A stretch of DNA of 64,000 bases from Acidimicrobiales bacterium. Lineage in GTDB: Bacteria > Actinomycetota > Acidimicrobiia > Acidimicrobiales > SZUA-35. The stretch is from assembly GCA_965216675.1 (NCBI GenBank), contig CBDCGK010000004.1, positions 2,055,692-2,119,691 of the forward strand, in the 5' to 3' direction. Shown here in pieces: positions 15,339-46,997 of the stretch; the first letter of the stretch is position 1; each line of letters begins with the position of its first letter. The translations under genes were made by a program, and so were the position numbers. Under the pieces are notes generated by a model. The model was not told the DNA's origin and ran no database searches. It saw nothing but the letters and a program-made list of their open reading frames with translations.

Positions 15339-15408
15339 TGCCTGGCTGCACGACCACGGTCGGGCCGATGTCGTCTCCCAGTGGAACGAACCGGGCACAC
15401 GTCGATCG

Positions 15409-21577: not shown

Positions 21578-21743
21578 GAAGTAGGCCGAGTCTGGCGAAC
21601 GCTTCGGCCCCGGTCGGGACCTGTGGGTGATCGGTAGCGTGCAGGAGCACCCCGTCCACCCCGAAGACATCGCGAAGTCTACAGCCCGGCAGCCGACGGT
21701 GCTGATAGGTCGACAATCCCGTCGAAGGCTCGGGCGCGGTACC

Positions 21744-28349: not shown

Positions 28350-28352
28350 CCG

Positions 28353-29246: not shown

Positions 29247-29271
29247 TCGCCGGTGAGCGGGAGGTCGATCG

Positions 29272-32326: not shown

Positions 32327-32386
32327 CGTCGAGTGACCACGAACGACCCTCTGCAAACCACCACACAAACCCAAATGGAGCAAACC

Positions 32387-32605
32387 ATGAAGAAAATGCA
32401 TGATCTGACCATCGCAACCTACGTTCCCGCCCGGAACGCGGTCGGCCGGTTCTGGCGGGATCAGCGAGGGGCGTCGATCTCCACCGTGCTGCTCATCGCC
32501 ATCCTCGTCATCGCCATCGCCGCCTTCGGTGCCATCGTGGCCGGCCAGATCAACACTGCCGGACAGTCCGTCGGTGGTGTCGACTTCAGCGGCAACAACA
32601 ACTAG
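32387..32605 (+). CDS. flp: Flp-family prepilin (non-canonical mature N-terminus)
   Basis: GGAG lies 6 nt upstream of ATG 32387. The sequence MKKMHDLTIATYVPARNAVGRFWRDQRG/ASISTVLLIAILVIAIAAFGAIVAG resembles an Flp leader ending in G followed by a hydrophobic helix. The ORF is open from 32333. Confidence 0.6.
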   Translation: MKKMHDLTIATYVPARNAVGRFWRDQRGASISTVLLIAILVIAIAAFGAIVAGQINTAGQSVGGVDFSGNNN

Positions 32606-32614
32606 CGCAGTCCA

Positions 32615-32998
32615 TTGGCCGTCGGCAGACTTCGAGCCGAGGAGGGCGAGACCGCGGTCGCTTCGACGATCCTGGTTCCGCTTCTGCTGTTCGGTCTCTT
32701 CATGCTGATTCAGATCCTCATGGGTTTCTATGTCCGCTCGGTGGCGTCCGCCGCCGCCACCGACGCAGCATCGTTCCTCGCCCAGGACGGGGTGACGAGC
32801 GGTCAGGCGGAGGCCTACGCCCGAGACTTCATCGCCGATCAATCGGGTGGACTGGTGTCGAACCTGACGGTCACTGCTTCCAAGGGTGCGGAGTTCACCA
32901 ATGTCTCGATCAACGGCGACACCAACCTCCTGTGGAGCGTCGGTCTCGGTGTCGACGCATCGGCCCCTGTCGAACGATTCCAACCCCAGGGGCCATGA
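32615..32998 (+). CDS. TadE-like pseudopilin
   Basis: TTG start. TadE N-terminal pattern EEGETAVASTILVPLLLFGLFMLIQIL. Confidence 0.65.
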   Translation: MAVGRLRAEEGETAVASTILVPLLLFGLFMLIQILMGFYVRSVASAAATDAASFLAQDGVTSGQAEAYARDFIADQSGGLVSNLTVTASKGAEFTNVSINGDTNLLWSVGLGVDASAPVERFQPQGP

Positions 32999-33498
32999 CC
33001 GTGCAGCCACGGAGCCCAAAAACGTCCCCGGCCCTCATCGTCGCGCTCGATGAAGAGGGGTCGGCCGGCTACTCGACCCTCGTGGTCGTACTCACCTTCT
33101 TTGCCGTGCTCGGATTGGGGGTGGCGGGCATGCGGGTCTTCACCGGAGCCGGCGATCTCCATTCGGCGGCCCAGTCGGCGGCTCGGGCGGCGGCCCTCGA
33201 GCACGACCTGGGAGATGCCCAAGCGGCCGCGCAAACCGTGGCGATGGCCGAATTGGCCCGGGCCGACGAGGCGTGTGAGAGTCCGACCATCCAGGTGTCA
33301 CCGGGTGGCGGCGGGTTCGAGCCGGGTGGCTCGGTTCGGATCGACATGACCTGCACGGTTTCGTACCAGGGCCTGTGGGTGCCGTTCATGGGGTCCTCGC
33401 GGGCCGTCTCGGTGTCGGCGGTGGAGCCGATCGACTGCTTGCGGGGCGGCGGCTCCAACGCGCTGGACCTGGCCGACAACTGTTACTACGGCGGGTGA
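32995..33498 (+). CDS. TadE/TadF-like pseudopilin
   Basis: ATG 32995 overlaps the preceding stop (ATGA). Sequence DEEGSAGYSTLVVVLTFFAVLGLGVAG. Confidence 0.6.
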   Translation: MTVQPRSPKTSPALIVALDEEGSAGYSTLVVVLTFFAVLGLGVAGMRVFTGAGDLHSAAQSAARAAALEHDLGDAQAAAQTVAMAELARADEACESPTIQVSPGGGGFEPGGSVRIDMTCTVSYQGLWVPFMGSSRAVSVSAVEPIDCLRGGGSNALDLADNCYYGG

Positions 33499-33502
33499 TC
33501 GT

Positions 33503-33925
33503 ATGAGGCGGCGGACGGCACGAGCAGACGAGGATCGGGGCGATGCCGGCGTGGCGTTCATTCTGATCATTCCTGCGTTGCTGTTCGTCGCCGTTCACCT
33601 CATCACCGCCAGCCAGCAGCTCTACGAGCGCCGGGAGGCCTGGGCCGTGGCCGCATCCGCCAGCAGGGTCGGGGCGCAGGCCGACCCCTTACTCGTCCGC
33701 CAGACCAACGAACCGACCATCGACGCGGCCAAAGCCCGGGCCGCCGTGAACCGCTACGTCACCGACAACGGGTACCAGCTCGACGTGTTCGACCTGACCG
33801 GCAACACCGTGACCGTCGAGATCTCGGGAACCATCGACTACGTGTTCCCGACGGTGCTGAGCACAACGATCACCGGCCGGGCCGAAACGACCCTTCGGGC
33901 CGGTGTCGTTCAGGAGGGGGGATGA
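33503..33925 (+). CDS. TadE/TadG-like pseudopilin
   Basis: EDRGDAGVAFILIIPALLFVAVHLITA, then a ~100-aa soluble domain. Confidence 0.55.
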   Translation: MRRRTARADEDRGDAGVAFILIIPALLFVAVHLITASQQLYERREAWAVAASASRVGAQADPLLVRQTNEPTIDAAKARAAVNRYVTDNGYQLDVFDLTGNTVTVEISGTIDYVFPTVLSTTITGRAETTLRAGVVQEGG

Positions 33926-36204
33926 TGGCCGGCACGGCCCGTCGCCTGCTGCGAGTCGCTCAGACTCTTCTCGCCGGGCTGTTCGGCCTGGTCGTGCTCG
34001 TCGGTGTGCCCCTGGCTCTGTGGCGGTTCGTCGGCAACCCACTCGATCTCCTCCCCCAATCGTGGGAGGAGGCCCGGCGAATGGTCGACCAGCGCAACCT
34101 CACCGCTGATGTCCTGCTCGCGGTACTGACCTGCATCATGTGGGTGCTGTGGTTTCAGTTTGTGTGGGCCACGTTGTGGGAGCTGTTCGTCGTCGGCCCC
34201 AAGGCCGGGAGGGGTGAGGTCGCCCGTGAGGCGCCGGGCGTTCCCCGGTTCATCCGCTCGATCGTCTCGGCCGTGACCTCGGGCCTGCTGTCGGCCAGCG
34301 TTGTGGCCAGCGCCTCGTCGGCGGGGTCGTTGCTTCCCGACCTGGTGGCCAGCGCTCCGGTGTTGGCGACCGAGCTCGTGCAGGGTGACGTCGTCGACGC
34401 CGACACCCAGGCCGCCGGAACGATGGCGATGCAGTTCTACCGCATCACCGATCACGACCGCATGTGGGATCTGGCCGGGCAGAACGACGCCGTGCTGCAG
34501 CGCATTCTCGAGATGAACGCCGACCAGGTGCGCTCACCGATCGACTTCCGACCGGGTATGACCATTCGGGTTCCGGCCAGCCTCAACCTGCCCGACGCGG
34601 TGGCCGACGAGGCCGAGCTCCATACGACCGACGGTGACACCGCCGCCGGCGAGGCGAACGGCAACGTCGTCTATGAGGTGGTCGAGGGTGACAACCTCTG
34701 GAACATCTCCAAGACCCGCTTGAGCGAGGCCGACGGCGAGAGACCGTCGAACCGGGAGATCCTGGAGGAGGTGACCGACGTCGTCGAGCGGAATCCCGAT
34801 GTCATCGAGGACCCGGATCTGATCTACCCCGGTGAGCTGTTGTCACTTCGTTCGGTTGAGGACGCGGTCGAGGCAACCGATGCCGGGCGAAACGAGGGCG
34901 ACGCCACCGACGAGGACCCGGTCCACGAAGGTGCCGCCGAAGAAAATGCCGCCGAAGACGAAGGCACGGCCGACGAAGGCACGGCCGTCGACGAAGGCAC
35001 CGCCGAGGAGGGCTCCGCCCAGCCCTCGGTCGGGGACGGCACAACCATCGATTCCATCCCGGTCGACCCCGGCGACGGATCGTCAACCACGGCGGACCCT
35101 CTGGACGATCCGGAGATCGCTCCGGTGACCGGTTCACCGTCGGCCGTACCGTGGCTGGTCGGCGGCGCCGCACTGTCGTCGGCACTGCTCGGCCTGTACC
35201 TGGCCGGGCGGCGGCAGACGAACGGGTTCACGGTCGGATACTCCCGAAAGCCCGACGACGGCGACGAGGAGACCCCGCCGCTCCTCCAGGCCATCGCCCG
35301 CACCGCCGACCCGCGGTTCATGACCTGGATCGCCCGTCGTCTCGACGACACGCTCGCAGGCCACGGCACCACCGCCGCATTCCCGACGGCCATGCTGGTC
35401 ACGCCGGGGCAGCGGCTGGAGATGCAATGGCCGAATCCGGTGGTGCTGACGGCACCGAAGTGGGGCATGGTCGACGGCGAAGGTCGACGGTGGGCGTGCG
35501 CCTATGATCCCGACGACGCCTCGGCCCCGGCCGACACTCCGACAAGCCCGGGCTCGACGACCACTGCTGCGCTCCCCGCCATGCTCAGTCTCGGACGGGT
35601 GCTCGACGTTCCCGGATCGGCCGGCCCCGCCGATGAGCCACCTGACGACACCGAGCTGCTGGTCAACGTCGAACACTTCGGCTCGATCGCCGTCTGCGGG
35701 TCGACGGCGCACGTCTTCCCGGCGATTCGGGCGATGATCTTCGAACTCGCGGTCGGAGGTCAGGTTTGCCGGACCCACGTGACGACCGTCGACTTCGAGG
35801 TCGAAGGCGCCGAGGTCCTGCCCGCCATCGCCGCCGCCCGCGAGGAGGAGGCCTTCGAGGCCGCCGCCGCCCCGGCCGACACCGGATCGACATTGCGCGT
35901 CTTCGTCGTTCAGGCCATCGGCGCTCAACTCGACCGCTGGTTCGAGCTGGCCAAACCCGAGACCGGGGTGGCGCTGATCCTCATCGGCGACGTCCGTTCG
36001 AGCCGGCTGGGCTCCCGGTTCGTGCTCGCCGATGACGGCACCGGCGAGTTCCACGGCCTCGAACAGCGGGTTCGGGTTCACGGGTTGGGCCCCTCCACCG
36101 CCCTGGCGATCGAGGACCTGTTCCGCTCATCCGAACCAACTGCCGCCGGCGAATCGGAGTCGGTCGAGCCGCAGGTCGAATCGTTCGAGCGGTCGGGCGG
36201 TTGA
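33922..36204 (+). CDS. Membrane protein with two LysM-like motifs and a large acidic/unknown C-terminal region
   Basis: The start overlaps the preceding stop (ATGA). Two N-terminal TMs. LysM-like segments YRITDHDRMWDLAG...GMTIRVP and YEVVEGDNLWNISK...LIYPGELLSL. Last large gene of the Tad operon. Confidence 0.65.
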   Translation: MMAGTARRLLRVAQTLLAGLFGLVVLVGVPLALWRFVGNPLDLLPQSWEEARRMVDQRNLTADVLLAVLTCIMWVLWFQFVWATLWELFVVGPKAGRGEVAREAPGVPRFIRSIVSAVTSGLLSASVVASASSAGSLLPDLVASAPVLATELVQGDVVDADTQAAGTMAMQFYRITDHDRMWDLAGQNDAVLQRILEMNADQVRSPIDFRPGMTIRVPASLNLPDAVADEAELHTTDGDTAAGEANGNVVYEVVEGDNLWNISKTRLSEADGERPSNREILEEVTDVVERNPDVIEDPDLIYPGELLSLRSVEDAVEATDAGRNEGDATDEDPVHEGAAEENAAEDEGTADEGTAVDEGTAEEGSAQPSVGDGTTIDSIPVDPGDGSSTTADPLDDPEIAPVTGSPSAVPWLVGGAALSSALLGLYLAGRRQTNGFTVGYSRKPDDGDEETPPLLQAIARTADPRFMTWIARRLDDTLAGHGTTAAFPTAMLVTPGQRLEMQWPNPVVLTAPKWGMVDGEGRRWACAYDPDDASAPADTPTSPGSTTTAALPAMLSLGRVLDVPGSAGPADEPPDDTELLVNVEHFGSIAVCGSTAHVFPAIRAMIFELAVGGQVCRTHVTTVDFEVEGAEVLPAIAAAREEEAFEAAAAPADTGSTLRVFVVQAIGAQLDRWFELAKPETGVALILIGDVRSSRLGSRFVLADDGTGEFHGLEQRVRVHGLGPSTALAIEDLFRSSEPTAAGESESVEPQVESFERSGG

Positions 36205-36217
36205 TGACGGTATCCGG

Positions 36218-36676
36218 ATGACGGCGCTCGGCTGGATCTGGTTCGCCGCTGTCGCCGCCATCGTCGTGACCCTGTCCGTGACCGACTGGCGTCGCCGCAG
36301 GGTGGCGAACAGCCTGGTGGTGCCGCTGACCGCGCTGGCGGTCGTGTTCGTGGCCGCCGGTGACACCGACGCCGTCGTGACATCGCGGTGGTGGGCGGCG
36401 GCCGCCGCAGCCGTGGCGTTCCTGGCCGGCCTCACCGCCTGGACGGTTGGTCTGGTCGGCGCCGGTGACGTGAAACTGCTGGCGCCGGTCGCGCTGATCA
36501 TGACCCGCCTCGGGTCCACCGCCTGGCTGCTCTACCTCGGCGTGTTCATCGTCACCGCGGTGCTGGTCCTGGTGGCGGGCGACCGCCGGGATCGGTCGCT
36601 TCCCCTGGCCCCGGTGCTGGGGCTCGGCGTCATCCCGGCTCTCCTCGCCGCTCCCCCACCCTGGTTCGGGTCGTGA
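36218..36676 (+). CDS. tadV: Prepilin peptidase (A24 family, TadV-like)
   Basis: Polytopic protein. The two aspartate motifs are LSVTDWRRRRV and GAGDVKLLAP. ATG 36218 is in frame with ORF 36032..36676. Confidence 0.8.
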   Translation: MTALGWIWFAAVAAIVVTLSVTDWRRRRVANSLVVPLTALAVVFVAAGDTDAVVTSRWWAAAAAAVAFLAGLTAWTVGLVGAGDVKLLAPVALIMTRLGSTAWLLYLGVFIVTAVLVLVAGDRRDRSLPLAPVLGLGVIPALLAAPPPWFGS

Positions 36677-36712: not shown

Positions 36713-38896
36713 TCAGTCGAGCGACCAGATCTGGACGGTGCCGTCGAGGCGACCGACGGCCAGCGCCCGGCCGGTGCTCGACCAGCTGACCGCGGTGGCG
36801 TCTCCGTTCCCCGAGGGGGTCAGTTCGACGACCTCGTCACCGGTGACGAGATCCCGGATCCGAACGACGCCGTCCGCGTATCCGACGGCCAGGAGCACGC
36901 CGTCGTCGAGCCGGAGATCGGATGCCAGCACGCTGTTGCCGACGTCGATGCTCGACAGATCCTCGACGGTCCCGTCGGCATCGACCGATCGGAGGGTGAC
37001 GGTGCCGTCATCGTCGGTGGTGAGGACGAGGGTGGCAGCCACCCACTGCACCGACCGGGTCCAACGCCGGTCCGGATTCTCGACGACGGCGATCGGTGCG
37101 GGGGTCTCGATGTCCCATACGATGACCCGACCGTCCTTGCCGCTTGACACCGCCCTCCCGCCGCTCGGGTCCCAGGCGAGGTCGAGCACGTCACCGTCGT
37201 GTCCGTCGAGCACTGCCGGCTCGGAACCGCCCAGATCCCGGACCACGATCCGTCCGCCGGCGTAGCCCTCGAGGAGTCGGGTGCCGCCCGGATCCCAGGC
37301 GACCGCCTCGGCCGATGAGGCGCCGGAGCCGACACGGGTCGGCCCGCCGCCGTCCACTGACGCCACGGCAACGGTCCCGTCGGTGACGGCCACAGCCATC
37401 TGTGTTCCGTCGGGCGACCAGGCGGCGTCGACGACCCAATCGCCGGCGTCGAACTCCGAAGCCGGACCGTTGGATCCCGACAGGGGCCAGATTCGAACCG
37501 CACCGTCGGTGCCGGCGGTGGCCAACTCCGGACCGGCCGGGGCGAAGGCCACGACGGTCACCCAGGACGACGGGTGCGCTTCCCACTCCCGTGTCGGCTC
37601 GCCGACATCAGCCCAAGCGGCACGAGCGGCGGCGGCCGACCGGTCGTCGGTGCTGCGCTCGATGAACTCGCCCGGTTTGGAACCGGATCCGGTCAGCCCC
37701 GCATAGGCGACCGCGGCGACCAGAAACCCGCCGGCGGCGAGCATCGCCCAGTGCCAGCTCGGCCTCGCTCGACCGGTGATGACCGAGCCGGACCGCCGAC
37801 GCGCAGGCTTGTCGACGGTCGGTTCCGTGGGACGGTCCATCGATCCGACCGGCCGCGTCGACGACGGCTCGACGGCCGCGCCGACATCACCGATCGGCTC
37901 GATGCGGAGCCGAGCCCGAGGTTCGGACTCCGGCTCCGGGGCCGGGTTCGGTGGCGGGGTCGGTTGGATGGGATTGCGATCGCCGCCGACCTCGGTCTCG
38001 GCTTCGACCTCGTCGCTCACGATCGGGGTCGGGTCGATGCCGTTGGCCTTCTGGATCTCGACGAGCCGGCGGGCGACCGCCAGACAGGTCGGCGGTCGAC
38101 GGTCCGGGTCTCGGGCCATCATGTCGGTGAGCAGGTCGGCGAGTGCCATTGGCGCCGATGCCGTCAGCCGGGGTGGCGTCTTCGCCGCGGTCACCCGGTG
38201 CACCACGACCTCGGTCGACGGGTCGGTGAACGCCGGCGTTCCCTCCGTCAGGGCGAAGAGGCTGGCACCGAGGGAGTAGATGTCGCTGCGCGCCGTGGGC
38301 CGCTCACCCTCCAGTACCTCGGGGGCACCGTACAGCGGCGTGGTGGAGACCTTGACCGTGAACGACCCACCGACACCGGGAGCGGCGAACGACGCGATGC
38401 CGAAGTCGGCCAGAATAGGCTGCCGATCGAACTCGCCACGGAAGATATTTGCAGGTTTGACGTCACGATGCACGAAACCTCTTGCGTGTGCGGTGTGCAA
38501 CGCACCGGCGATCTTTATACCGAAATCGACCACTTCCGGCCATGCCAATGGACCAGAATCATCGACCAGGTCGGCATAGTTGCCACGAGGGTAGTAGGGC
38601 ATGACGATGTACGGGTGCCGGTCCGCCGTCGTACCACTGCCGTACAGATCGATGATGTTCGGATGCGTCGACAGCCGACCCATCGCCGCCAGCTCGCGCT
38701 CGAGGGCAAGCTCCGTCGCAGCATCGACGCGGCCCCGGTGAAGCACCTTGACCGCAACGGTTCGACCGTGGCGAACATCCCTCGCCCGGTACACGACACC
38801 GGAGCTTCCCACGGCGAACTGCCCCAAATCGGCCAATCCCGGGATGCCGAGTTCGTTGGTCGACTTCCCTTCCCGATCGCCGTCGCCGCTCATCAC
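36713..38896 (-). CDS. Ser/Thr protein kinase with one TM segment and an extracytoplasmic WD40/beta-propeller domain
   Basis: Kinase motifs VAVKVL, HRDVKPANIF, DFGIA and YGAPEV. TM WHWAMLAAGGFLVAAVAYAGL. Repeated ...DG.VR.WDL/WSPDG... blades follow. Confidence 0.9.
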   Translation of the reverse strand: MMSGDGDREGKSTNELGIPGLADLGQFAVGSSGVVYRARDVRHGRTVAVKVLHRGRVDAATELALERELAAMGRLSTHPNIIDLYGSGTTADRHPYIVMPYYPRGNYADLVDDSGPLAWPEVVDFGIKIAGALHTAHARGFVHRDVKPANIFRGEFDRQPILADFGIASFAAPGVGGSFTVKVSTTPLYGAPEVLEGERPTARSDIYSLGASLFALTEGTPAFTDPSTEVVVHRVTAAKTPPRLTASAPMALADLLTDMMARDPDRRPPTCLAVARRLVEIQKANGIDPTPIVSDEVEAETEVGGDRNPIQPTPPPNPAPEPESEPRARLRIEPIGDVGAAVEPSSTRPVGSMDRPTEPTVDKPARRRSGSVITGRARPSWHWAMLAAGGFLVAAVAYAGLTGSGSKPGEFIERSTDDRSAAAARAAWADVGEPTREWEAHPSSWVTVVAFAPAGPELATAGTDGAVRIWPLSGSNGPASEFDAGDWVVDAAWSPDGTQMAVAVTDGTVAVASVDGGGPTRVGSGASSAEAVAWDPGGTRLLEGYAGGRIVVRDLGGSEPAVLDGHDGDVLDLAWDPSGGRAVSSGKDGRVIVWDIETPAPIAVVENPDRRWTRSVQWVAATLVLTTDDDGTVTLRSVDADGTVEDLSSIDVGNSVLASDLRLDDGVLLAVGYADGVVRIRDLVTGDEVVELTPSGNGDATAVSWSSTGRALAVGRLDGTVQIWSLD

Positions 38897-38963
38897 AGCT
38901 CAGAGTATTGGCGGATTGCGGCCGGACCACATCGCCCGGCCACCTCACAACCGGTGATCGCAC

Positions 38964-39006
38964 GGGATCGATCCCCATTGTCGGATCCGGGCACCCCGCT
39001 TAACGT
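38964..39006 (+). promoter_or_regulatory. Candidate operator-promoter 2: GGGATCGATCCC-N25-TAACGT, upstream of the WXG100 gene
   Basis: Palindrome at 38964-38975. TTGTCG lies at the -35 position and TAACGT at 39001-39006, about 43 nt before ATG 39049. Confidence 0.55.
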
Positions 39007-39048
39007 TGGCGACACGAACAAGAACTATCAAATCAGGAGGAAATGACA

Positions 39049-39327
39049 ATGGCACTCTTCGGTGCAGATATCGAACAACTGCGTGGCCTTGGATCCAAGT
39101 TCGACACCAACTGGGCGGGCGAACTCGAGGGCCTGATCGGCACCATCGATTCCGAGGTGGCGGCATCGGAGGCCATTTGGGTCGGTCCCGACGCCAACAA
39201 CTTCCGGGGCACCACCTGGCCCCAGCACAAGGCTGCGATGCAGGCGGCGCGGGAGGCCCTGATTCAAGCGGGCACCCTCGCTCGGGCTCAGGCCGACCAG
39301 CAGGAGCAGACGAGCGCCGTCCGCTGA
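39049..39327 (+). CDS. WXG100-family (ESAT-6-like) protein
   Basis: 92 aa, helical, with a central W-x-G (EAIWVGPDANNF). AGGAGG lies 8 nt upstream of ATG 39049; the track start at 39043 is too close to the SD. Confidence 0.8.
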   Translation: MALFGADIEQLRGLGSKFDTNWAGELEGLIGTIDSEVAASEAIWVGPDANNFRGTTWPQHKAAMQAAREALIQAGTLARAQADQQEQTSAVR

Positions 39328-39479
39328 TCGCTCCTCTCGTGACTGCGGCACCTCGTGTGCCGGGCGGGTTCACGACGGGCGATGCTGAAGGGGAGTGGGC
39401 CACGGTCCGCTCCCCTTCGCAGTGAGGCGGCGGCCAGGTGTGAGGTGGTTCGGACCGGTCCTGCGATCTGGAGGTCCGT

Positions 39480-40223
39480 TTAGTCGGCCTCGTGATCCTC
39501 GAGGGCCTCGAGATCGGTCTCGGTGAGGATCCCCCGCTCGATGGCCACCTCGGCCAGGATCCGCCGCCGGTCGTTGTTGCGGCCACCGACCCCCTTGTCG
39601 AGGCCCCGCACACCGAGGTTGGTGAGCCGCCCGCAGAGGTTGTCGAGTTTGCGGTTGAACTTGGTTTTGCTCCAACCCAGCCGGGTTTGAGCGTCGTCGT
39701 TGGTCGGGAGTTGGAGAGGCTGGTGCGGGTTGCGCAGGAGCGACTCGGCCAGCACGGTCATCAGGAGGCGTTGTTCATGAGTCCACGGAATGAGGTGCAG
39801 TCCGACGGTGTCGCTGGGTTCCGCCGGTTCGACGCGCTCGATCGGCGGCCCGCTGAGCAACAGCTCATAGCGGGTGGAGCCGGCCACGAAGTGCACGAGA
39901 AGGTTCTCACCGGGGAGCATTTGGCCGGTGCCGGACGTGAGCCGGGCGCTGGCCTTGGTGTCGCGGTCGAACATCTCCAGCTCGATGCGGGACCCGGTGT
40001 TGACCAGCCACCAGCGGCCGTCGCGATGCTCGAACCGGCCGAGTTGACGATGCAGAAAGGCGTTGTCGTCGATGTCGAGTTCGGCTCCCCGGCCGAACGT
40101 GAGCGACTGGTCCACCTCCAGCAGGGTCAACTCGCCGCAATAGTCGACCAGCAGACAGCCTTCGCCGACCGCCTCCGCATAGCCGTCGGGAAGGTCGTCG
40201 ATGTCGTCCATGGCCCTGACCAA
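39480..40223 (-). CDS. FHA-like domain protein with a putative C-terminal helix-turn-helix
   Basis: N-terminal LTFGRGAELDIDDNAFLHRQLGRFEHRDGRWWLVNTGS is a divergent FHA pattern. C-terminal DAQTRLGWSKTKFNRKLDNLCGRL looks like an HTH. Divergent from the EccC-like gene. Confidence 0.5.
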   Translation of the reverse strand: MVRAMDDIDDLPDGYAEAVGEGCLLVDYCGELTLLEVDQSLTFGRGAELDIDDNAFLHRQLGRFEHRDGRWWLVNTGSRIELEMFDRDTKASARLTSGTGQMLPGENLLVHFVAGSTRYELLLSGPPIERVEPAEPSDTVGLHLIPWTHEQRLLMTVLAESLLRNPHQPLQLPTNDDAQTRLGWSKTKFNRKLDNLCGRLTNLGVRGLDKGVGGRNNDRRRILAEVAIERGILTETDLEALEDHEAD

Positions 40224-40291
40224 GATAGTGGCATCGGACCCGGCGTTGTCGAAGCTTGTCCGGCGGGTTCAGGTCTCGTCGGGAGTGACCG

Positions 40292-43200
40292 ATGAGGTTG
40301 CTGCTGACGATCGAGGGAATCGGCGATCGATCGATCGAGGTGTCCGACGACGCCACCGTCGGCGATCTTCTGGACACGCTGGTCGTGACCGACCGGGTTT
40401 CGGACGACCACTCCCGGCCGGTGGCGGTTGCCCACGGGTTCGTGGTCGAGCGAACCGGTCAGGTGGTCACGCCGGAGACCCCGACCGCCAAGGCCAACAT
40501 CCGATCCGGAGACCGGGTCCGGCTCGTCGACCACGGGGAAGCGGTGCGGCTCGGCCGCTCGCTGCTCGACCCGTCCGGGCCGGTGGCCGACCGACCGGCG
40601 GCGTGGGTCAAGCTACTGACCGGCCCGATGGCCAATACCGTCTTCGAAGTCTCCTTCGGTGACAGCACGATCGGGCGGGGCCGGGACAACGACATCGTGA
40701 TCGACGACGACGCCATGTCGTCGCACCATGCGGTCGCCACCGTCGACGACCATTCGATCACCGTGACCGACCTGGCCTCCACCAACGGGGTGGTGACCGA
40801 CCGAGCCGCCGGCAACGACGCCCTCACCCGCTCGACGACCCTGCTCCCCGGACGCCGGGTGCTGCTCGGGACGACGTGGATCGAGATCGAGCACTGCCAC
40901 CGGACGAGAGGACTGGCCGACGTCGACGGCCCGACGGTCGAGTTCAACCGGCCACCCCGGCTCGTGACCCCCTTCGAGGCGCACTCCATCACGCTGCCCG
41001 AACCGCCCGACCATCCCGGACGAACCCGCCTCCCGATGATCACCGCCCTGGTCCCGCTTCTGATGGCCGGGGTGTTGGTGTATTCGCCGGTGATGTTCGG
41101 GGGTGAACCCAACTACCGGTACGGCCTGTTCATGCTGTTCTCGCCGCTGATGATCATGGGCTCGTTCTGGGAACGCAAGCGCAGCGGTCGCGCCGACTTC
41201 AAACAGGCTCTGAGGACGTTCCGAGCCGAGCTGTCGGTCGCCGAGTCCGAACTGTCGGCGGCCCAGGTTCACGAGCAGCGGGGCCGGTTGCGGGCGGCGC
41301 CGTCGATCACGGAACTGGCCGAGGCGGTCGATGCGCTGTCACCTCGCCTGTGGGAGCGAGCCGTCGGCGACACCGACACGTTCTCCCTTCGGGTCGGTCT
41401 GGCCGACCAGCCGTCGATGGTCGAGATCATCGACTCAGGACGGGGCCCGGCCGATCTCCGCCACGAGGTCGACGAGCTGCCGAACCGCTATGCAACGGTG
41501 CCGGGGGTTCCGGCGTTGGCCGACATGCGGGTACACGGCGGGATCGGGGTGTCGGGAACGCGGGAGTACGTCACGCCGCTCTGCTATTCGCTGGTCGCTC
41601 AGACCGCGATCCTGCACAGTCCGGCCGAGGTGCTGGTGGCAGCCATGGTTCCGCCCGACGCCAAACGGGACTGGGAGTGGATGAAGTGGCTGCCCCACTG
41701 TCCGCCCGAGGACTCCCCGCTCGGGGGACCACACCTGGCCGCCGACGAGCTGGCATGCCGCAACCTGCTCGGCCGGCTGCTGGAGCTCGTCGATCAGCGT
41801 GGAGGCGGACGGCACCACGGCCGGGAGCCGAACGGAGCCGGAGCCACGCCATGTGTGTTCGTGGTCATCGCCGAGGGCGTGCCCGTCGTGCAGCACGAAC
41901 TCACCCGTCTTCTCGAGGACGGCCCGAGCGCCGGGGTGTTTCCGCTGTGGATCTCCGGGGCCTCCCGTCGGGTCCCCCGCCCGATCGGCAATGTCATCGA
42001 CATCGCCCCCGACGGCTCGACCGCCACGCTGGCGTTCGCCGGGGGCGGAGCCAACCCCAACCCCGGCCCGGGCTCCAACGCCACCGCAAACCCGGCCCCG
42101 GCCGTCACCGACATCGCGATCGAAACCCTCGGCGAGGATGCGGTGACCGAGCTGGCCCGCCGCCTGGCGCCGGTCGAGGACGTCAGCGCCCGCTTCACCC
42201 GGACCTCCGCGATTCCCGACATGGTGAGCCTCGTCGATCTGCTCGGCGGCCCCGACGTTCTCGACACCCCCGACCGGCTCCTCGGCCGGTGGGCCGGTCG
42301 GCCCAAACACCTGGAGGCACCGGTCGGCCGGACCGCCGACGGGGTCTTCACCCTCGACATCCGCCGCGACGGACCCCACGGCCTCGTCGGCGGGACCACC
42401 GGCGCAGGCAAGAGCGAGTTCCTGCAGACCTGGATCATGGCGATGGCGGCGTCGTTCAGTCCGGAGACGGTCAACTTCCTCCTGGTCGACTACAAGGGCG
42501 GTGCGGCGTTCAAGGACTGCAGCCGTCTGCCTCACTCGGTCGGCATGGTCACCGACCTCGATCCGGCCGGAATCCGCCGGGCGCTGGTGTCGCTCGGAGC
42601 CGAGGTCCGCCGCCGGGAACTCATCCAGGACGAGCACAACTGCACCAGCCTGCTCGACATGATCGACAAGGGCATCGACGAGGCGCCACCGAGTCTGCTC
42701 ATCATCGTCGACGAGTTCGCCGCCCTGGTGCAGGAGGTACCGGAGTTCATCGAGGGCATGGTCGACATCGCCCAGCGGGGTCGCAGCCTCGGCGTGCATC
42801 TTGTGCTGGCCACTCAGCGGCCGGCCGGAGTGATCACCGGGCAGATCAAGGCCAACACCGACCTCCGTATCGCGCTGCGCACCTCCGACAAGGAAGACTC
42901 GGTCGACGTGATCGAGACACCCGACGCCGCCGACATCGATCGGCGAACCCCGGGGCGGGCGATCTCCCGCATCGGCCGTCAACGCACCCAATTCCAGTCG
43001 GCCTACGTCGGCGGCGTGACCGAAACCGATGCGATGTCGGGCCCGGAGGTCGGCATCGACAGGTTCTCCTTCGACGGCATCGAGCCGATCGATATCCCCG
43101 GCGACAGGCGACAGGACGAGCGGACCGGGGCCACCGACCTGGAGCGGCTGGTCGACAACATCGAAGCAGCCCACCGCCGGTCGAACCGACCGATGCCCCG

Positions 43201-44770
43201 ACGCCCGTGGCTCGATCCGCTGCGCCCGGCCTACGACCTGGAGAACCTGTTCGACGCCGTCGCCGGCACCGACGTGGACCCGGCAACCGTCGTCGATTCC
43301 GGCGGTTCCCTACCGATCGGTCTGGTCGACCTCCCTGATGACCAGACCCAGGTTCCGTTCACGTTCCGGCTCGACACCGACGGCAGCCTGGGTGTGGTCG
43401 GAGCGGGCGGCGCCGGCAAGACGGTGGCGCTGCGGACCATCGCCGTGGCCGCCGCCCTCTCGGTCGACGATCCCTCCGACGCCCCGATCGTCTACGGGCT
43501 CGACTTCGCCGGGCGCGGCCTGCAGATGCTCGAAACCCTGCCCCATGTGGCGGGCATCGTGGCCGACGACGAGCCCGAGCGGATCCAGCGGGTGCTGGCC
43601 ACCATGGAGACCGAACTCGTCGAACGCACCCGTCTGTTCTCCGAGGCGAGGGCCTCGTCGTTCCCCGAATACCGGCGGGCGTCGGGCGGATCGATGGTGC
43701 GGCATCTGCTCCTCATCGACGGCTACCCGTCGTTCCACGAGCTGTACTCCGGCGTGGAACGGGACCGATGGATCAACCTGGTTCGGCGCCTCATCGTCGA
43801 GGGCCGCCAGTTCGGACTGCACGTGGTGCTGACCGCTCCCCGGCGCGACACCGTCTACTCCACCGTCGCCCGCTCCATCGGACGGTGGCTCGTGCTCCGC
43901 CAGACGTCGAGCGACGACTATCGGAGCCTCGAACTGCCGCCCGACCTGCTGGGAGAGGAACCACCGCCTGGACGGGCGATCCACAATCGCCGCATGGCCC
44001 AAGTGGCCGTGCTCGGCGGACGCCCCGACACCGAATCCCAGGTCCAGGCGGTGTCGAGGTTGGGCGCCGAGATGACACGGCGGGGATTCCCGTCCGCTCC
44101 CCCGATCCGGTTGCTTCCCACCGAGGTCGACCGGAGCGACCTCGTCGAGCCGCGGGCCGTCGGCCTGCTTGACCGCGACTTCAGCGAATGGACCCTGCCC
44201 GAACGGTTCCGGGTGTTCCTCGTCACCGGGCCCCGCTCCAGCGGTCGAACGACCGCACTGTTCACGCTCGGTGCAGCGGCGACCGAGGCGACCGACGCCT
44301 CGGCGAACGGCCGAGCCGACGTGATCCTGTTGTCGGCACGCCCTCCGGCTGCGCCGATCCCAGCCGACTGGCGGACGGCTGTCGGCGACACGGAGGTGCG
44401 GCCCGTCGTCGACGAGCTCTCCGCTCCGGCGACGACGTCGGCGGGAGGCCGGCGAACCGTCGTCCTGGTCGACGACGCCACGGCGCTGGTCGACATGGGC
44501 GTTCCGTTGGGACCACTCGTCGAGGCCGCCGACGGCGAACGGCTCCGTGTGATCGTCGTGATGGACGACACGAAGGCGCGATCCAACTTCGACGCCTTCT
44601 CCCGTTCGGTGCGGGCGTCACGTCTCGGCCTTCTGCTGCGGCCGAGCCCGTTGGAGGACAAGGAGATCTACGGCCTACCACTACCCCGGGTGGCCAGTCA
44701 CCTCTGGCCTGTCGGCCGCGGCTACATCGTTGACGACCAGGCGATCGAGATGATCCAGCTCGGAGCGTGA
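40292..44770 (+). CDS. eccC: Type VII secretion FtsK/SpoIIIE-family ATPase (EccC/EssC-like) with N-terminal beta-grasp-like and FHA domains
   Basis: FHA pattern TIGRGRDNDIVIDDDAMSSHHAVATVDDHSITVTDLASTNGVV. Two TMs (LPMITALVPLLMAGVLVY and YGLFMLFSPLMIMGSFW). Three P-loop domains: GGTTGAGKSEFL with LLIIVDEFAAL, GAGGAGKTVAL with HLLLIDGYP, and TGPRSSGRTTAL with VVLVDDATAL. Confidence 0.9.
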   Translation: MRLLLTIEGIGDRSIEVSDDATVGDLLDTLVVTDRVSDDHSRPVAVAHGFVVERTGQVVTPETPTAKANIRSGDRVRLVDHGEAVRLGRSLLDPSGPVADRPAAWVKLLTGPMANTVFEVSFGDSTIGRGRDNDIVIDDDAMSSHHAVATVDDHSITVTDLASTNGVVTDRAAGNDALTRSTTLLPGRRVLLGTTWIEIEHCHRTRGLADVDGPTVEFNRPPRLVTPFEAHSITLPEPPDHPGRTRLPMITALVPLLMAGVLVYSPVMFGGEPNYRYGLFMLFSPLMIMGSFWERKRSGRADFKQALRTFRAELSVAESELSAAQVHEQRGRLRAAPSITELAEAVDALSPRLWERAVGDTDTFSLRVGLADQPSMVEIIDSGRGPADLRHEVDELPNRYATVPGVPALADMRVHGGIGVSGTREYVTPLCYSLVAQTAILHSPAEVLVAAMVPPDAKRDWEWMKWLPHCPPEDSPLGGPHLAADELACRNLLGRLLELVDQRGGGRHHGREPNGAGATPCVFVVIAEGVPVVQHELTRLLEDGPSAGVFPLWISGASRRVPRPIGNVIDIAPDGSTATLAFAGGGANPNPGPGSNATANPAPAVTDIAIETLGEDAVTELARRLAPVEDVSARFTRTSAIPDMVSLVDLLGGPDVLDTPDRLLGRWAGRPKHLEAPVGRTADGVFTLDIRRDGPHGLVGGTTGAGKSEFLQTWIMAMAASFSPETVNFLLVDYKGGAAFKDCSRLPHSVGMVTDLDPAGIRRALVSLGAEVRRRELIQDEHNCTSLLDMIDKGIDEAPPSLLIIVDEFAALVQEVPEFIEGMVDIAQRGRSLGVHLVLATQRPAGVITGQIKANTDLRIALRTSDKEDSVDVIETPDAADIDRRTPGRAISRIGRQRTQFQSAYVGGVTETDAMSGPEVGIDRFSFDGIEPIDIPGDRRQDERTGATDLERLVDNIEAAHRRSNRPMPRRPWLDPLRPAYDLENLFDAVAGTDVDPATVVDSGGSLPIGLVDLPDDQTQVPFTFRLDTDGSLGVVGAGGAGKTVALRTIAVAAALSVDDPSDAPIVYGLDFAGRGLQMLETLPHVAGIVADDEPERIQRVLATMETELVERTRLFSEARASSFPEYRRASGGSMVRHLLLIDGYPSFHELYSGVERDRWINLVRRLIVEGRQFGLHVVLTAPRRDTVYSTVARSIGRWLVLRQTSSDDYRSLELPPDLLGEEPPPGRAIHNRRMAQVAVLGGRPDTESQVQAVSRLGAEMTRRGFPSAPPIRLLPTEVDRSDLVEPRAVGLLDRDFSEWTLPERFRVFLVTGPRSSGRTTALFTLGAAATEATDASANGRADVILLSARPPAAPIPADWRTAVGDTEVRPVVDELSAPATTSAGGRRTVVLVDDATALVDMGVPLGPLVEAADGERLRVIVVMDDTKARSNFDAFSRSVRASRLGLLLRPSPLEDKEIYGLPLPRVASHLWPVGRGYIVDDQAIEMIQLGA

Positions 44771-45180
44771 ACGACAACCGTTGGTGGCCCGGAGCCGCTA
44801 CCGTTGCGGATCGAAGAATGGACAAGAACATGAACGCGGACAACGACAGGAAAAACAAGGACAGGAATACCGACGATCACCGGGTGGACCGCCGGGATCA
44901 TCGGATGTCCGAGCCGCGCTCGGGTGGTCCGGCCGAGACCGCCATGCGTCAAGGCATCATCGCGCTGTCGCCTTTCTTCGTCGTGGTCAGCCGCCTCATG
45001 GGCGTGCTCATCTCCGGAGTCGGTCTGCTGCTCGTCGTGGCGGGTATCGCGGGCGCCGACGACGGGGGCCTCGTCCTCGCCGTCGTCGGGCTGGTGCTGG
45101 TCGCACTCGGACTGCTGATCTTCTTCGGCGGTCCCCGCTATGCCCGGACGGTCCGGCGACATCACGGCGCCGGTTCCTGA
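44767..45180 (+). CDS. Small membrane protein (charged N-terminus, 2-3 TM helices), translationally coupled to eccC
   Basis: The GTG start overlaps the eccC stop (GTGA). TM segments IIALSPFFVVVSRLMGVLISGVGLLLVVAGIAG and LVLAVVGLVLVALGLLIFFGG. No family recognised. Confidence 0.5.
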   Translation: MNDNRWWPGAATVADRRMDKNMNADNDRKNKDRNTDDHRVDRRDHRMSEPRSGGPAETAMRQGIIALSPFFVVVSRLMGVLISGVGLLLVVAGIAGADDGGLVLAVVGLVLVALGLLIFFGGPRYARTVRRHHGAGS

Positions 45181-45198
45181 CAGCGATCCCGCCGATCG

Positions 45199-45241
45199 GG
45201 GATCGATCCCGATTTTCGGTCCCGACCTGATTTTCTACCAT
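45199..45241 (+). promoter_or_regulatory. Candidate operator-promoter 3: GGGATCGATCCC-N25-TACCAT, upstream of the WXG-fusion effector
   Basis: Palindrome at 45199-45210. TTTTCG lies at the -35 position and TACCAT at 45236-45241, about 43 nt before GTG 45284. Confidence 0.55.
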
Positions 45242-45283
45242 CGCCGACGACAGCGGTAGTAGGACGATGGAAGGGATCGGCCG

Positions 45284-46453
45284 GTGGCAGACCTCCATGG
45301 GTTGGACATTGACGAGATGACCCGGCTCGCCGGCGAGATCGACCGGGCGGCCGACGGATGCGACGTCGTCGCCGGGGCGGCTTCGGTCGGTGCGGCCGAA
45401 TCGGTGCGGATCTGGGTTGGAGCCGATGCGGACGACTTCCGCAGTACGTGGTCGGCCACCCACGATCCGGCGGTGCGGCGGGCGGGAGCCGAACTGCGGG
45501 CGATGGCCGAGGTCATCCGGCGCAACCGGGACGAGCAGATCGTCGCCAGCGACGCCGGGACGATCAGCGGCGGTCCGGGTGGGTTCCCCGGCCAGCCAGG
45601 TTGGCCCGGTGGCCCGGGTGGGGCTGGTGGCGCCGGAGGCGCCGGGCCGACGATCACCGTCGACCCCGACGGTCGGGTCTGGACCGGCGCGTTCGACGTG
45701 GGCGACCGGACCGACGGGCGCCTGATCGGTGAGTACGAAACGGGTTGGGCGCTGTCGGCGGCCGCCGCCGGTTCCGCCTCCTACCAGGAGGTCCCGGGCG
45801 GCTTCGAGTTCGACGCCTGGATCGAGGGTCGCTCCGGCTTCCAGGCCCAGGTCGGCGGCACCTACACGAACAATCACCTCGGGCACGATCTTCTGGCCCA
45901 GGGCGAGCTCGGCGTCTTCCTCGGCGGACGAGGCGAGGGGTCGACCGCGCTGGCCTGGACCGACGATGGCTATCTCATCGACCTCGAAGCCGAGGCGTTT
46001 CTCGGAGCCGAGGCCTATGCCAACGGCAACGTCGACTACGGGGCGCTTGGGGCCGGCGGCGCCGCGGTGGCCATGGTCGGCGCCACCGCCGGGGCCAACT
46101 ACCTGAACGAATTCGACGGCCGCAACGTCCGAACCGACCTCGGGGCCGAGGCGTTCCTGGGGGCCAAGGCCGGGGTGGAAGGCGATGTCACGCTGTTCGG
46201 CGACGACGTCTCGGTCGGAGGCGGTGTCGGTGTGTCGACCGGTATCGGCGGCGGCATCGACGGTGGCTTCGCCTTCGGGCTCGACGAGGTCGGCGTCGAA
46301 CTGGATCTGGGTCTGGCCCTCGGCCTCGGCTTCGACGCCTCCATCGACCTGTCATTCGACCCTGTCGGCGTCGGCAGCGGATTGGTCGATGCCGGCGGGG
46401 CCGCCGTCGACTTCGGCAAGGACACCACCGGTTGGATCAGCCCATGGTGGTGA
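45284..46453 (+). CDS. WXG100-like N-terminal domain fused to a Gly/Pro linker and a Gly/Ala-rich C-terminal domain (candidate T7SS substrate)
   Basis: The N-terminus (V)ADLHGLDIDEMTRLAGEI...VRIWVGADADDF parallels the standalone WXG100 (ALFGADIEQLRGLGSKF...AIWVGPDANNF). Linker GGPGGFPGQPGWPGGPGGAGGAGGAGP. The C-domain has internal repeats (EAEAFLGAEAYANG / LGAEAFLGAKAGVEG). Confidence 0.7.
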   Translation: MADLHGLDIDEMTRLAGEIDRAADGCDVVAGAASVGAAESVRIWVGADADDFRSTWSATHDPAVRRAGAELRAMAEVIRRNRDEQIVASDAGTISGGPGGFPGQPGWPGGPGGAGGAGGAGPTITVDPDGRVWTGAFDVGDRTDGRLIGEYETGWALSAAAAGSASYQEVPGGFEFDAWIEGRSGFQAQVGGTYTNNHLGHDLLAQGELGVFLGGRGEGSTALAWTDDGYLIDLEAEAFLGAEAYANGNVDYGALGAGGAAVAMVGATAGANYLNEFDGRNVRTDLGAEAFLGAKAGVEGDVTLFGDDVSVGGGVGVSTGIGGGIDGGFAFGLDEVGVELDLGLALGLGFDASIDLSFDPVGVGSGLVDAGGAAVDFGKDTTGWISPWW

Positions 46454-46493
46454 ACCGAGCGAACCGAGTGAACCGACAACCGAAAGGACGATC

Positions 46494-46997
46494 ATGACCC
46501 GCACCATGGGCTTTCCCACCCCCGACTTCCCCGGCCCCCCACCGTTCCGATTCGAGCTCCCGCAGGACTGGCGGGCGATGCCGTCGGTCCAAGCCGACGC
46601 TGTCGTCGTCGGACCGGAGGCCCACGACGGGGTGCACCCGAACGTGGTGGTCGCCAACCACAAGGTACCGCCCACCGACGATCCGGCATCGCTGCTCCGG
46701 ACCATGATCGATCAACAGGTCCGGCGCGACAACGTTCAGCTCGACGGTGACCCGGCGGTGTCCGACGACGGTCTATCGTGCCGCGTGCGTCTCACCCGCC
46801 GCGGCACCGCTGAGGCCGCGCCCGGCGACGCCGCCGCGGTCCCGACCGATGCGGTCGACATTGCGCAGTCGCTGAACCTGCGCTACATCGCCGGCTCACA
46901 CGTGGCCCATGTCCTGGCCGCCACCGGCACCTACGCCCCGTCAAGCGACGAAAGCCGTGCCGTGGTCGACGAGGTGATCCGCTCCGTCGAGTGCTGA
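46494..46997 (+). CDS. Effector-associated accessory protein (paralog of 52467..53114; candidate chaperone/adaptor or immunity)
   Basis: ATG 46494 lies within ORF 46185..46997, preceded by AAAGGA. It shares DFPxxPxxxxxxPxxWR and VxGPxxxDGVxPNxxVxxxxVP blocks with the 52467 gene. Confidence 0.55.
   Translation: MTRTMGFPTPDFPGPPPFRFELPQDWRAMPSVQADAVVVGPEAHDGVHPNVVVANHKVPPTDDPASLLRTMIDQQVRRDNVQLDGDPAVSDDGLSCRVRLTRRGTAEAAPGDAAAVPTDAVDIAQSLNLRYIAGSHVAHVLAATGTYAPSSDESRAVVDEVIRSVEC

Follow-up and report, generated by a model that had tools for sequence, protein, structure and literature searches.

The subject of this analysis is a stretch of 64,000 nucleotides from an Acidimicrobiales bacterium (GenBank assembly GCA_965216675.1, contig CBDCGK010000004.1), hereafter called the window, which carries at positions 36713 to 46997 a locus resembling type VII secretion systems (T7SS). 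Since the G+C content of the window is 65-71%, genes were called by third-position GC (GC3) and by the GC1>GC2 pattern. The locus starts on the minus strand with a receptor Ser/Thr kinase (36713-38896; Pfam Pkinase 1.6e-39, WD40 2.8e-27) composed of a kinase domain, a transmembrane (TM) segment and a WD40 domain (STK-WD40). It is followed on the plus strand by a stand-alone WXG100 protein of 94 aa, WXG94, with a W46-V-G motif (39043-39327; TIGR03930 at 3e-5, below the cut-off, and an AGGAGG ribosome-binding site), and on the minus strand by p247, an FHA-like protein of 247 aa without Pfam match (39480-40223). Four plus-strand genes complete the locus. They encode a 1492-aa membrane ATPase of the EssC/EccC family (40292-44770; TIGR03928 4.7e-172, FtsK_SpoIIIE 2.6e-48); TM137, a 137-aa protein with two TM helices (44767-45180; plus frame favoured by GC3, helices by hydropathy); a 389-aa WXG fusion with W44-V-G (45284-46453; TIGR03930 at 0.033); and p167, of 167 aa, without direct Pfam match (46494-46997). 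A second group of plus-strand genes encodes p215, a paralogue of p167 (52467-53114), a 372-aa WXG-fusion toxin candidate with an HELQH motif and WXG100 matches (53089-54207), and the lipoprotein p177, with a LAAC lipobox (about 54207-54650).

A preliminary description of this DNA, made from the letters alone, had listed a minimal T7SS-like locus of an ATPase and WXG proteins. All genes that it named were recovered at the coordinates that it gave, as judged by GC3 calls and translations, including the third WXG protein at 53089-54207; only its 46185 start for the accessory gene p167 had to be corrected, as by GC3 this is an out-of-frame 5′ extension. The T7SS-like character of the locus and the absence of the canonical partners were borne out. 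'ATPase plus WXG' is nevertheless too short a definition, since a ubiquitin-like (Ubl) domain, an FHA domain, the kinase and p247 also belong to the locus. A promoter and terminator scan of the 36-48 kb region returned 0 promoter-like sites and 1 terminator-like site, not above shuffled sequence.

The best family match of the ATPase is EssC (TIGR03928), followed by EccCa (1e-105) and EccCb (9e-87), the FtsK family scoring 1.2e-18. Pfam detects FtsK_SpoIIIE in two stretches and an FHA domain (1.2e-9). From its N-terminus, the protein is organized as a Ubl beta-grasp domain (residues 1-80), an FHA domain (104-201), an NRPPR motif, two TM helices at about 245-300 (the first at 245-271, the second weaker), a linker/D0 region and three FtsK-type P-loop domains. 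Walker A motifs were located at 700, 1037 and 1313, the third being a K-to-R variant. The three FtsK domains proposed earlier are borne out by the three Walker A motifs, and the protein has the make-up of a T7SS ATPase, namely a membrane protein of the FtsK/SpoIIIE family with two TM helices and three tandem P-loop domains. An exact-sequence look-up of the window ATPase returned no record.

The N-terminal region was modelled with AlphaFold2 (AF2) over residues 1-240 from a 70-sequence alignment (pLDDT 87). In this model, residues 1-80 form a beta-beta-alpha-beta-beta-beta beta-grasp with pLDDT >90 in most blocks. A profile of the first ~85 residues retrieved only ubiquitin-fold matches from the PDB (a designed ubiquitin at 1.4e-5, ISG15, SAMP1 and the UBX-like domain of OTU1), and its hhalign comparison with Bacillus YukD gave an E of 0.0035 over 76 of 79 residues, a weak match (hhalign probability 9%). 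Foldseek, when queried with the two-domain model, listed FHA matches only within its top 50. The Ubl assignment therefore rests on topology, profile search and hhalign, and not on a structural-database match. With a Ubl predicted at the N-terminus of the ATPase, the YukD component is fused rather than missing: as judged by profiles and model, a YukD/EsaB-type Ubl is present, so that the Ubl expected of type VII secretion in the broad sense is found here in fused form. The FHA domain that follows matches GarA, OdhI and FhaA at ~3e-9 (Foldseek). Its phosphothreonine-binding columns (G128-R129, S143xxH146 and N165-G166) are invariant or conserved in at least 90% across 70 relatives, G128 and H146 being invariant, and the domain is predicted from these columns to be phosphothreonine-competent.

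To cover the canonical components, Pfam was run on essentially every plausible open reading frame (ORF) of the 64 kb, and NCBIfam, which holds the TIGR models of EccB/D/E, mycosin, EssA/B and EsaA, on the proteins of the locus and on all others that Pfam had left without a match. Neither gave a match to EccB, EccD, EccE, mycosin, EssA, EssB, EsaA or a free YukD in the window, in agreement with what had been stated for EccB/D/E, mycosin, EsaA and EssA/B. Hydropathy of the locus proteins revealed no polytopic EccD-like or 11-TM protein. None of the about 13-15 related loci that were compared (from Acidimicrobiia, Micrococcales, Mycobacterium and others) carried such T7SSa or T7SSb partners either, which makes their absence a property of the lineage and not an accident of the window. 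In particular, EccB, EccD, EccE and mycosin, which define T7SSa, are not encoded with the ATPase in the window or in the related loci.

Relatives of the ATPase at E<1e-50 number 576. The 120 relatives listed belong to Actinomycetota and are nearly all 1420-1560 aa long, with FHA and FtsK domains and mostly near-full query coverage; their hosts include Acidimicrobiia, Acidiferrimicrobium, Tetrasphaera, Brachybacterium, Mycobacterium spp., Myceligenerans, Arthrobacter, Microbacterium and Cellulomonas. The closest genome is an Acidimicrobiales metagenome-assembled genome (locus L001 in our numbering), whose ATPase is 72% identical and whose locus is collinear. Metagenomic proteins closer to the window ATPase than L001 carry the label Acidimicrobiia. 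A metagenome contig scan with the ATPase gave one distant locus only.

We further placed the ATPase in a neighbour-joining (NJ) tree of the D1-D2 region (520 columns, 200 bootstraps), built from 15 family members and ten references, EccC, EssC and TscC-TsjC, one per subtype, transcribed from Fig. S2 of Garrett et al. (PMC11217815). The 15 family members formed a clade with 100% bootstrap, apart from EccC, EssC and TscC-TsjC, and the b-j references grouped together (96%). Over D1-D2, identity of the window ATPase was lowest to EccC (25.6%), 29.7% to TsdC and 34.5% to TsiC, the EssC/TsiC range being 33-34.5%. Thus the ATPase, which has an FHA domain and is least identical to EccC, is not of the EccC type, defined by the absence of FHA and by grouping with EccC. 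Its clade also falls outside the group holding TsdC in this NJ tree with one reference per subtype obtained by optical character recognition (OCR). Membership in T7SSd was rejected on the ATPase phylogeny, on the presence of the Ubl and on the lack of TsdI. None of six RefSeq accessions taken from the clade is included in the supplementary accession lists of Garrett et al. (PMC11217815). Taken together, sequence comparison points to a large and distinct ATPase lineage, widespread in Actinomycetota and not found in the T7SSa-j accession lists.

FHA-ATPases at a greater distance (31% identity, about 1590-1630 aa) were seen in three Pseudoclavibacter loci (L003, L004 and L006). They are followed by a conserved ~1250-aa protein and by a different set of conserved genes; these loci may represent another arrangement, possibly a T7SSd-like one with a TsdI-type protein.

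The receptor kinase is PknB-like by NCBIfam. Its catalytic domain (residues 30-270) has intact VAVK, HRD, DFG and APE motifs and is connected by a Thr/Pro-rich linker to a single TM segment (381-401) and an extracytoplasmic WD40 beta-propeller (about 440-727). In topology (kinase, TM segment, ectodomain) the protein resembles EssB/TsxD, and by its motifs it is catalytically intact. Intact kinase motifs on one side, and the retained GR, SxxH and NG columns of the ATPase FHA on the other, reproduce the combination of kinase and phosphothreonine-competent FHA which is a feature of T7SSd. Orthologues of the same architecture adjoin the ATPase or a WXG gene in L001, L018 and L021.

The second regulatory candidate, p247, is a cytoplasmic protein transcribed divergently from the ATPase, and its true start is likely the ATG at 40211. 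It comprises a divergent N-terminal FHA domain (24-124) and a C-terminal domain of five helices (149-246). No Pfam or NCBIfam match was obtained; the AF2 model (pLDDT 92) does have an FHA fold, as had been suspected from the sequence, with Foldseek matches to Rv1747 FHA-1 (2.3e-5), OdhI and GarA. Its 315 homologues carry no informative name, those named being 'hypothetical protein'. The invariant G44-R45 of the FHA domain is retained, and the helical domain has an invariant W184...F189-N-R-K-L-D194 segment. A profile of the C-terminal domain found nothing in the PDB, and matches to HTH_24/HTH_36 in 5 of 15 members are weak; the domain is therefore only called helix-turn-helix (HTH)-like. p247 is the best conserved gene of the locus, with 89% identity to its L001 counterpart against 72% for the ATPase, and directly adjoins the ATPase in L001, L010, L012, L016 and L021. 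The preliminary description had treated the kinase and p247 as mere flanks. This view has to be abandoned, since both recur beside the ATPase in relatives; from this conservation, they are probably core partners of the ATPase.

A p247 homologue (44% identical) was also observed in L013/L014 (contigs JGI 3300031161 and ENA ERZ795068), where it is the last gene of an operon encoding a giant cadherin/Big_9 protein, MoxR, DUF58, TgpA, the product of an unknown gene, PP2C and FHA. No EssC-like ATPase lies nearby. The presence of the homologue in a MoxR operon devoid of the ATPase links the family to the Esr threat-sensing pathway described below, and suggests that p247 proteins are a general FHA-type output module of conflict-sensing operons with MoxR, TgpA and a kinase.

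Gene neighbourhoods were compared across 15 loci of the ATPase family. Beside the ATPase itself (15/15), WXG-domain proteins are found in nine loci, mostly directly downstream of the ATPase, Ser/Thr kinases in eight and the p247 family in six; Tad genes occur in four of the 15, TgpA transglutaminases in three and the p167 family in three. Besides the ATPase and the kinase, no membrane family common to these loci was found. The most informative locus is L021 (ATPase 52% identical), in which the order is STK-WD40 (minus strand), a WXG protein of 94 aa, p247 (minus strand), ATPase, WXG fusion and a small gene. It contains neither a Tad operon nor TM137, yet it has the core gene order of the window. 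In distant members (Myceligenerans, Arthrobacter, Acidiferrimicrobium and Mycobacterium), the ATPase ends operons of the type MoxR-DUF58-TgpA-(RDD)-PP2C-FHA-kinase, and in two of these a p247 homologue overlaps the start of the ATPase. MoxR, DUF58, TgpA and PP2C genes occur in the relatives L012, L013, L015 and L016; in the ORFs of the window, no match to MoxR, DUF58/vWA, TgpA or PP2C was obtained.

A further arrangement was observed in L018/L019 (GCA_041156825.1, contig JBFPEL010006636.1, 20.8 kb; ATPase 53% identical). One flank of the whole Tad operon holds the ATPase and a WXG fusion, together with a 172-aa gene and the gene for a weakly EspG-like protein; the STK-WD40 kinase and the WXG94 orthologue are on the other. 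The possibility that this contig is a circular or mobile 20.8-kb Tad plus T7SS element was rejected, as its ends do not overlap and no bridging p247 fragment was present.

WXG94, a W-V-G protein of WXG100 size with orthologues in L001, L018 and L021, is a candidate core substrate of the EsxA/TsxA type. Over their N-terminal ~95 residues, both fusions share homology with WXG94 and with the WXG fusions of other loci. In the 389-aa fusion, such a WXG100-like domain is joined through a Gly-rich linker to a Gly/Ala-rich C-terminal domain without assigned fold; a full-length orthologue of this protein is present in L001. Another fusion, L012_394, aligns with it at residues 4-90 only, its C-terminus being Gly/Ala-rich by eye. 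The 372-aa fusion carries an HExxH motif (HELQH, residue 298) in its C-terminal domain. C-termini thus vary by locus: Gly/Ala-rich for the 389-aa protein of the window and for L001, HELQH for the 372-aa protein, a GHSFGG hydrolase in L021 and hydrophobic in L018. The L021 protein (14431-16116), with a C-terminal alpha/beta-hydrolase whose nucleophile elbow reads GHSFGG, is a candidate T7SS toxin of the lipase/esterase type in Actinomycetota. The gene for the 372-aa fusion also contains four 33-nt tandem repeats (53520-53656), each encoding 11 aa similar to TDTAGTVWDGx.

Relatives of the HExxH domain are few, with 47 representatives among 1.84 billion proteins. In every multidomain match the domain sits at or near the C-terminus, and its carriers include RHS-repeat proteins and one WXG100 protein; C-terminal placement on RHS and WXG carriers is a signature of polymorphic toxins. 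The p177 gene follows that of the HExxH fusion with a TGATG overlap, and a lipoprotein in this position suggests that the toxin acts on the envelope and that its immunity protein is extracytoplasmic. The two look like a previously unnamed polymorphic toxin/immunity pair. Upstream, the putatively cytoplasmic, LpqN/DcrB-like p167 is a candidate immunity protein or chaperone for the preceding fusion: its homologue in L012 matches PF10738 Lpp-LpqN and, weakly, DcrB, and there, too, the gene comes after one for a WXG fusion whose C-terminus is rich in Gly/Ala. Sequence searches with the HExxH toxin domain and with p167 found nothing significant in the PDB. In general, the domain organization of the WXG fusions makes them look like polymorphic toxins with adjacent immunity candidates.

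Taken together, these results suggest that the locus rather probably encodes a functional T7SS-like system of a distinct actinobacterial lineage, gated by Ser/Thr phosphorylation and exporting WXG-tagged polymorphic toxins. In such a system, the extracytoplasmic propeller would sense a cue from the cell surface or from a neighbour, and the kinase would then autophosphorylate its Thr-rich juxtamembrane linker or phosphorylate partner proteins. The FHA domain of the ATPase could dock on the resulting phosphothreonine, in analogy to the EssC FHA on the pseudokinase EssB in T7SSb, and this docking might promote assembly or activation of the ATPase oligomer. In parallel, p247 would provide another FHA output, which might act on transcription by way of the HTH-like domain. 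The WXG100 protein would serve as co-substrate and activator, and the Gly/Ala-rich and HExxH fusions would be exported against competitors, with p167, p215 and the lipoprotein p177 as the proteins that shield the producing cell. The translocon itself is probably formed mainly of the TM helices of the ATPase, the least certain of these steps.

Several observations weigh against this interpretation. Secretion, phosphorylation and toxicity are predicted from genes and models. Neither for EssC nor for EccCa or EccCb does the ATPase reach the equivalog cut-off, and all WXG100 matches lie below curated cut-offs, that of WXG94 to TIGR03930 being under 44.85 bits. By eye, WXG94 has no canonical C-terminal export motif (YxxxD/E), and in L010 and L016 no WXG gene is found near the ATPase. 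On the regulatory side, the FHA domain of p247 has no canonical SxxH, which makes its phosphothreonine binding uncertain, and the HTH assignment depends on weak matches; no PP2C phosphatase was found in the window, unlike in most relatives. The separate position of the clade comes from a distance-based NJ tree with OCR-damaged references, one per subtype. Finally, the inspected DNA is 64 kb of a ~5.2-Mb genome, in which further components may be encoded at a distance.

How the substrates would cross the membrane can be specified further. As only the membrane segments of the ATPase and of the kinase are conserved, the translocon probably consists mainly of the TM helices of the ATPase. Tentatively, one may go further and picture the ATPase hexamer as the sole dedicated membrane translocon, with the one-polypeptide propeller kinase acting as a scaffold or gate in the manner of EssB or EccB/D/E. 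Phosphothreonine-FHA docking upon an external cue (a competitor or an epibiont) would turn toxin export on, in Acidimicrobiia maybe in coordination with Tad pili. This extended proposal is possible, if on the whole doubtful.

Alternatively, further membrane components could be encoded elsewhere in the genome or have gone unrecognized, among them TM137, RDD-family proteins, or the kinase ectodomain and TM segment as an EssB-like scaffold. We regard this as rather unlikely, for all that the visible DNA is 64 kb of a ~5.2-Mb contig and that small lineage-specific TM proteins, TsdH and TseK, exist in other variants (PMC11217815). TM137, which has a charged and probably disordered N-terminus before its two helices, is translationally coupled to the ATPase, its GTG start overlapping the TGA stop as GTGA, as the preliminary description had noted. 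However, its only homologue is in L001 (1.6e-16), none being found in L010-L022, and L021, with the same core gene order, has no gene in that position. A channel built from the ATPase and TM137, as had been proposed, is thus hard to reconcile with a protein restricted to the window and its closest relative; the absence of TM137 from L021 makes it unlikely to be a universal channel subunit, and it was rejected as a universal channel partner. Judged by its distribution, TM137 is a lineage-specific accessory. RDD-family membrane proteins, some with a zinc ribbon or an FHA domain, adjoin the ATPase in L002, L012, L016 and L022 (Actinomycetes branch) and might be a lineage-specific membrane partner there; in the window, no RDD protein was detected. 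Conservation of only the ATPase and kinase membrane families across the 15 loci argues in the same direction. The core genes of T7SSa and T7SSb are, moreover, normally clustered with the ATPase.

The Tad pilus raises another alternative. The operon, which occupies 27651-36676 on the plus strand and was identified by Pfam, NCBIfam and tblastn, abuts the locus and is complete, as first described. It encodes CpaB, a TadZ-like protein, TadA, TadB (30597-31463), TadC (about 31460-32326), Flp (32333), TadE and two TadG-like proteins, and ends with a 760-aa LysM-TM protein (33922-36204) and an A24 prepilin peptidase (36215-36676); TadB and TadC were identified by tblastn. The ATPase/kinase module could work together with this pilus, either as a co-regulated device for contact-dependent antagonism or adhesion, in which the pilus gathers cells while the T7SS delivers toxins, or with Tad supplying envelope-spanning parts. 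We consider such coupling unlikely. In its favour, Tad abuts the ATPase locus in the window, L001 and L010 and is sandwiched in L018/L019 between the ATPase and the STK-WD40/WXG genes, which makes adjacency in four of the five loci of the Acidimicrobiia subclade; in Bacillota, Tad genes are constant neighbours of T7SSg and T7SSh (Garrett et al., PMC11217815), so that this is an independent recurrence in another phylum. On the other hand, neither L021 nor any of the more distant loci retains the adjacency, Tad genes being absent within 10 kb in L021, L011, L012, L015, L016 and L022; L017 has the Tad operon with the LysM gene but lacks an ATPase in the surrounding 10 kb, and the two systems are not joined by any fused or shared gene. 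The Tad operon is therefore best kept outside the secretion core, as context with a possible functional link.

The LysM protein had been named as a candidate replacement for a missing T7SS component. In L001, L010 and L018, and also in L017, where the ATPase is lacking, its gene stands between those for the pseudopilins and that for the prepilin peptidase, and no homologue was found in the Tad-less ATPase loci. Since it tracks the Tad operon, this candidate was rejected. Two TM helices at its N-terminus are followed by LysM repeats, an acidic linker, one more TM helix and a cytoplasmic domain, and longer homologues (among P0248, P0250 and P0252) add a BTAD (SARP-type) domain. From this organization it appears to be a regulator that spans the envelope, binds peptidoglycan and is confined to the Tad loci of actinobacteria.

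That the ATPase instead serves a threat-sensing kinase pathway as an output of the FtsK/HerA type, such as a translocase of DNA or other macromolecules, with the WXG genes loosely associated, is very improbable: the WXG-free surroundings of the ATPase in L010 and L016, its frequent position at the end of conflict-type MoxR-vWA-TgpA-kinase operons and its scores below the T7SS equivalog cut-offs can be read in this way, but EssC/EccC is by far its best match (4.7e-172 against 1.2e-18 for FtsK), its two-TM, multi-P-loop architecture is diagnostic, its Ubl domain is typical of T7SS, WXG100 genes adjoin it in 9 of 15 loci, mostly directly downstream, and in Schaalia, Esx secretion depends on the EccC of a related Esr-linked system.

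Other genes of the window serve exopolysaccharide synthesis, the Tad pilus and ordinary metabolism or code for xanthine-dehydrogenase-type enzymes. A large cell-surface polysaccharide cluster (650-24115) contains genes for a Wzz/GNVR chain-length protein, a Wzy-type polymerase, a flippase and several GT2/GT4 glycosyltransferases, together with a sulfotransferase, an epimerase/dehydratase and an aminotransferase. A secreted, alginate-lyase-like protein with RTX repeats is encoded within it (3902-5662), and several of its proteins, such as those at 14340-15338 and 20528-21775, have no family match.

A phosphorylation-gated, toxin-exporting T7SS-like system, as preferred here, can be set beside four groups of known systems. 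T7SSd of Olsenella and Bifidobacterium (PMC11217815) resembles the locus in being actinobacterial, in an EssC-like ATPase whose N-terminal FHA has intact phosphothreonine motifs, in a membrane Ser/Thr kinase whose kinase domain is cytoplasmic, in its one WXG100 gene and small TM protein, and in the absence of EccB/D/E, mycosin, EssA/B and EsaA. In contrast, the window ATPase forms a separate clade and is no closer to TsdC (29.7%) than to EssC/TsiC (33-34.5%). No Ubl was found in actinobacterial T7SSd (Garrett et al., PMC11217815), whereas here one is predicted as a fusion to the ATPase; actinobacterial YukD domains were known only as fusions to the 12-TM EccD protein (Iyer et al. 2006). The scanned ORFs of the window include no giant Ig-repeat protein like TsdI, the kinase ectodomain is a WD40 propeller instead of helical, TM137 has two TM helices and is unconserved while TsdH has a single one, and p247 has no counterpart in T7SSd.

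The T7SSb systems share with the locus EssC as the best ATPase model, an N-terminal FHA, the need for a Ubl, a single WXG100 gene, and polymorphic toxins with WXG/LXG-type helical N-termini and immunity genes. The kinase-TM-ectodomain topology is also that of the pseudokinase EssB, and was reported to be shared by TscD/TsdD with EssB (PMC11217815). In contrast to T7SSb, with two FHA domains and a free EsaB, the window ATPase carries one FHA after its fused Ubl, the kinase is catalytically intact, and EssA, EsaA and free EsaB are absent from the window. The window FHA also keeps the phosphothreonine motifs that EssC lacks, in line with the report that intact motifs are found in kinase-associated subtypes and not in EssC (PMC11217815). 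T7SSg and T7SSh resemble the locus in their simple gene sets placed immediately beside a complete Tad operon; they differ by ATPases without FHA, which group with the other Bacillota-type references, by a free Ubl (TsxB) and by their occurrence in Bacillota. The window thus provides a second, independent case of T7SS-Tad adjacency outside Bacillota, a recurrence which does not imply a mechanistic link.

In terms of regulation, a parallel is the Esr-linked Esx system (Wang ... Mougous 2026 preprint, PMC13622651), in which a surface beta-propeller sensor activates a kinase and the FHA output EsrG, of variable architecture, controls Esx transcriptionally or post-translationally, as in Schaalia; translational fusions of EsrG to EccC exist. 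Beta-propeller sensor, Ser/Thr kinase and FHA outputs controlling Esx/T7SS are thus common to both, as are the MoxR-DUF58-TgpA-PP2C-FHA-kinase operons that end with the ATPase in distant clade members, and the related operon, devoid of the ATPase, that is closed by a p247 homologue. Unlike a complete Esr set, the window includes no MoxR, vWA/DUF58, transglutaminase or PP2C, its sensor and kinase are one polypeptide, and its organism belongs to Acidimicrobiia, Esr being reported as effectively confined to the class Actinomycetes (PMC13622651). The words 'ubiquitin', 'EccB' and 'EccD' are absent from the main text of the preprint, which accordingly appears not to address a Ubl fusion or the lack of canonical membrane components.

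Many T7SS variants, kinase/FHA control and FHA-EccC fusions are already in the literature (Garrett 2024; Wang 2026). Both the identity of the type VII pore and the switching of export are open questions for ESX and T7SSb, and a lineage as compact as this one could serve to test if the ATPase can be the channel by itself, which role the Ubl has and how export is gated by phosphothreonine-FHA docking. New toxin and immunity families are also indicated, with the HExxH domain common to WXG and RHS proteins, the Gly/Ala-rich domain and the LpqN/DcrB-like partners. Compared with these known systems, the locus adds Acidimicrobiia to the hosts of kinase/FHA-linked T7SS regulation, a mode of control that has recently been connected with epibiont defence.

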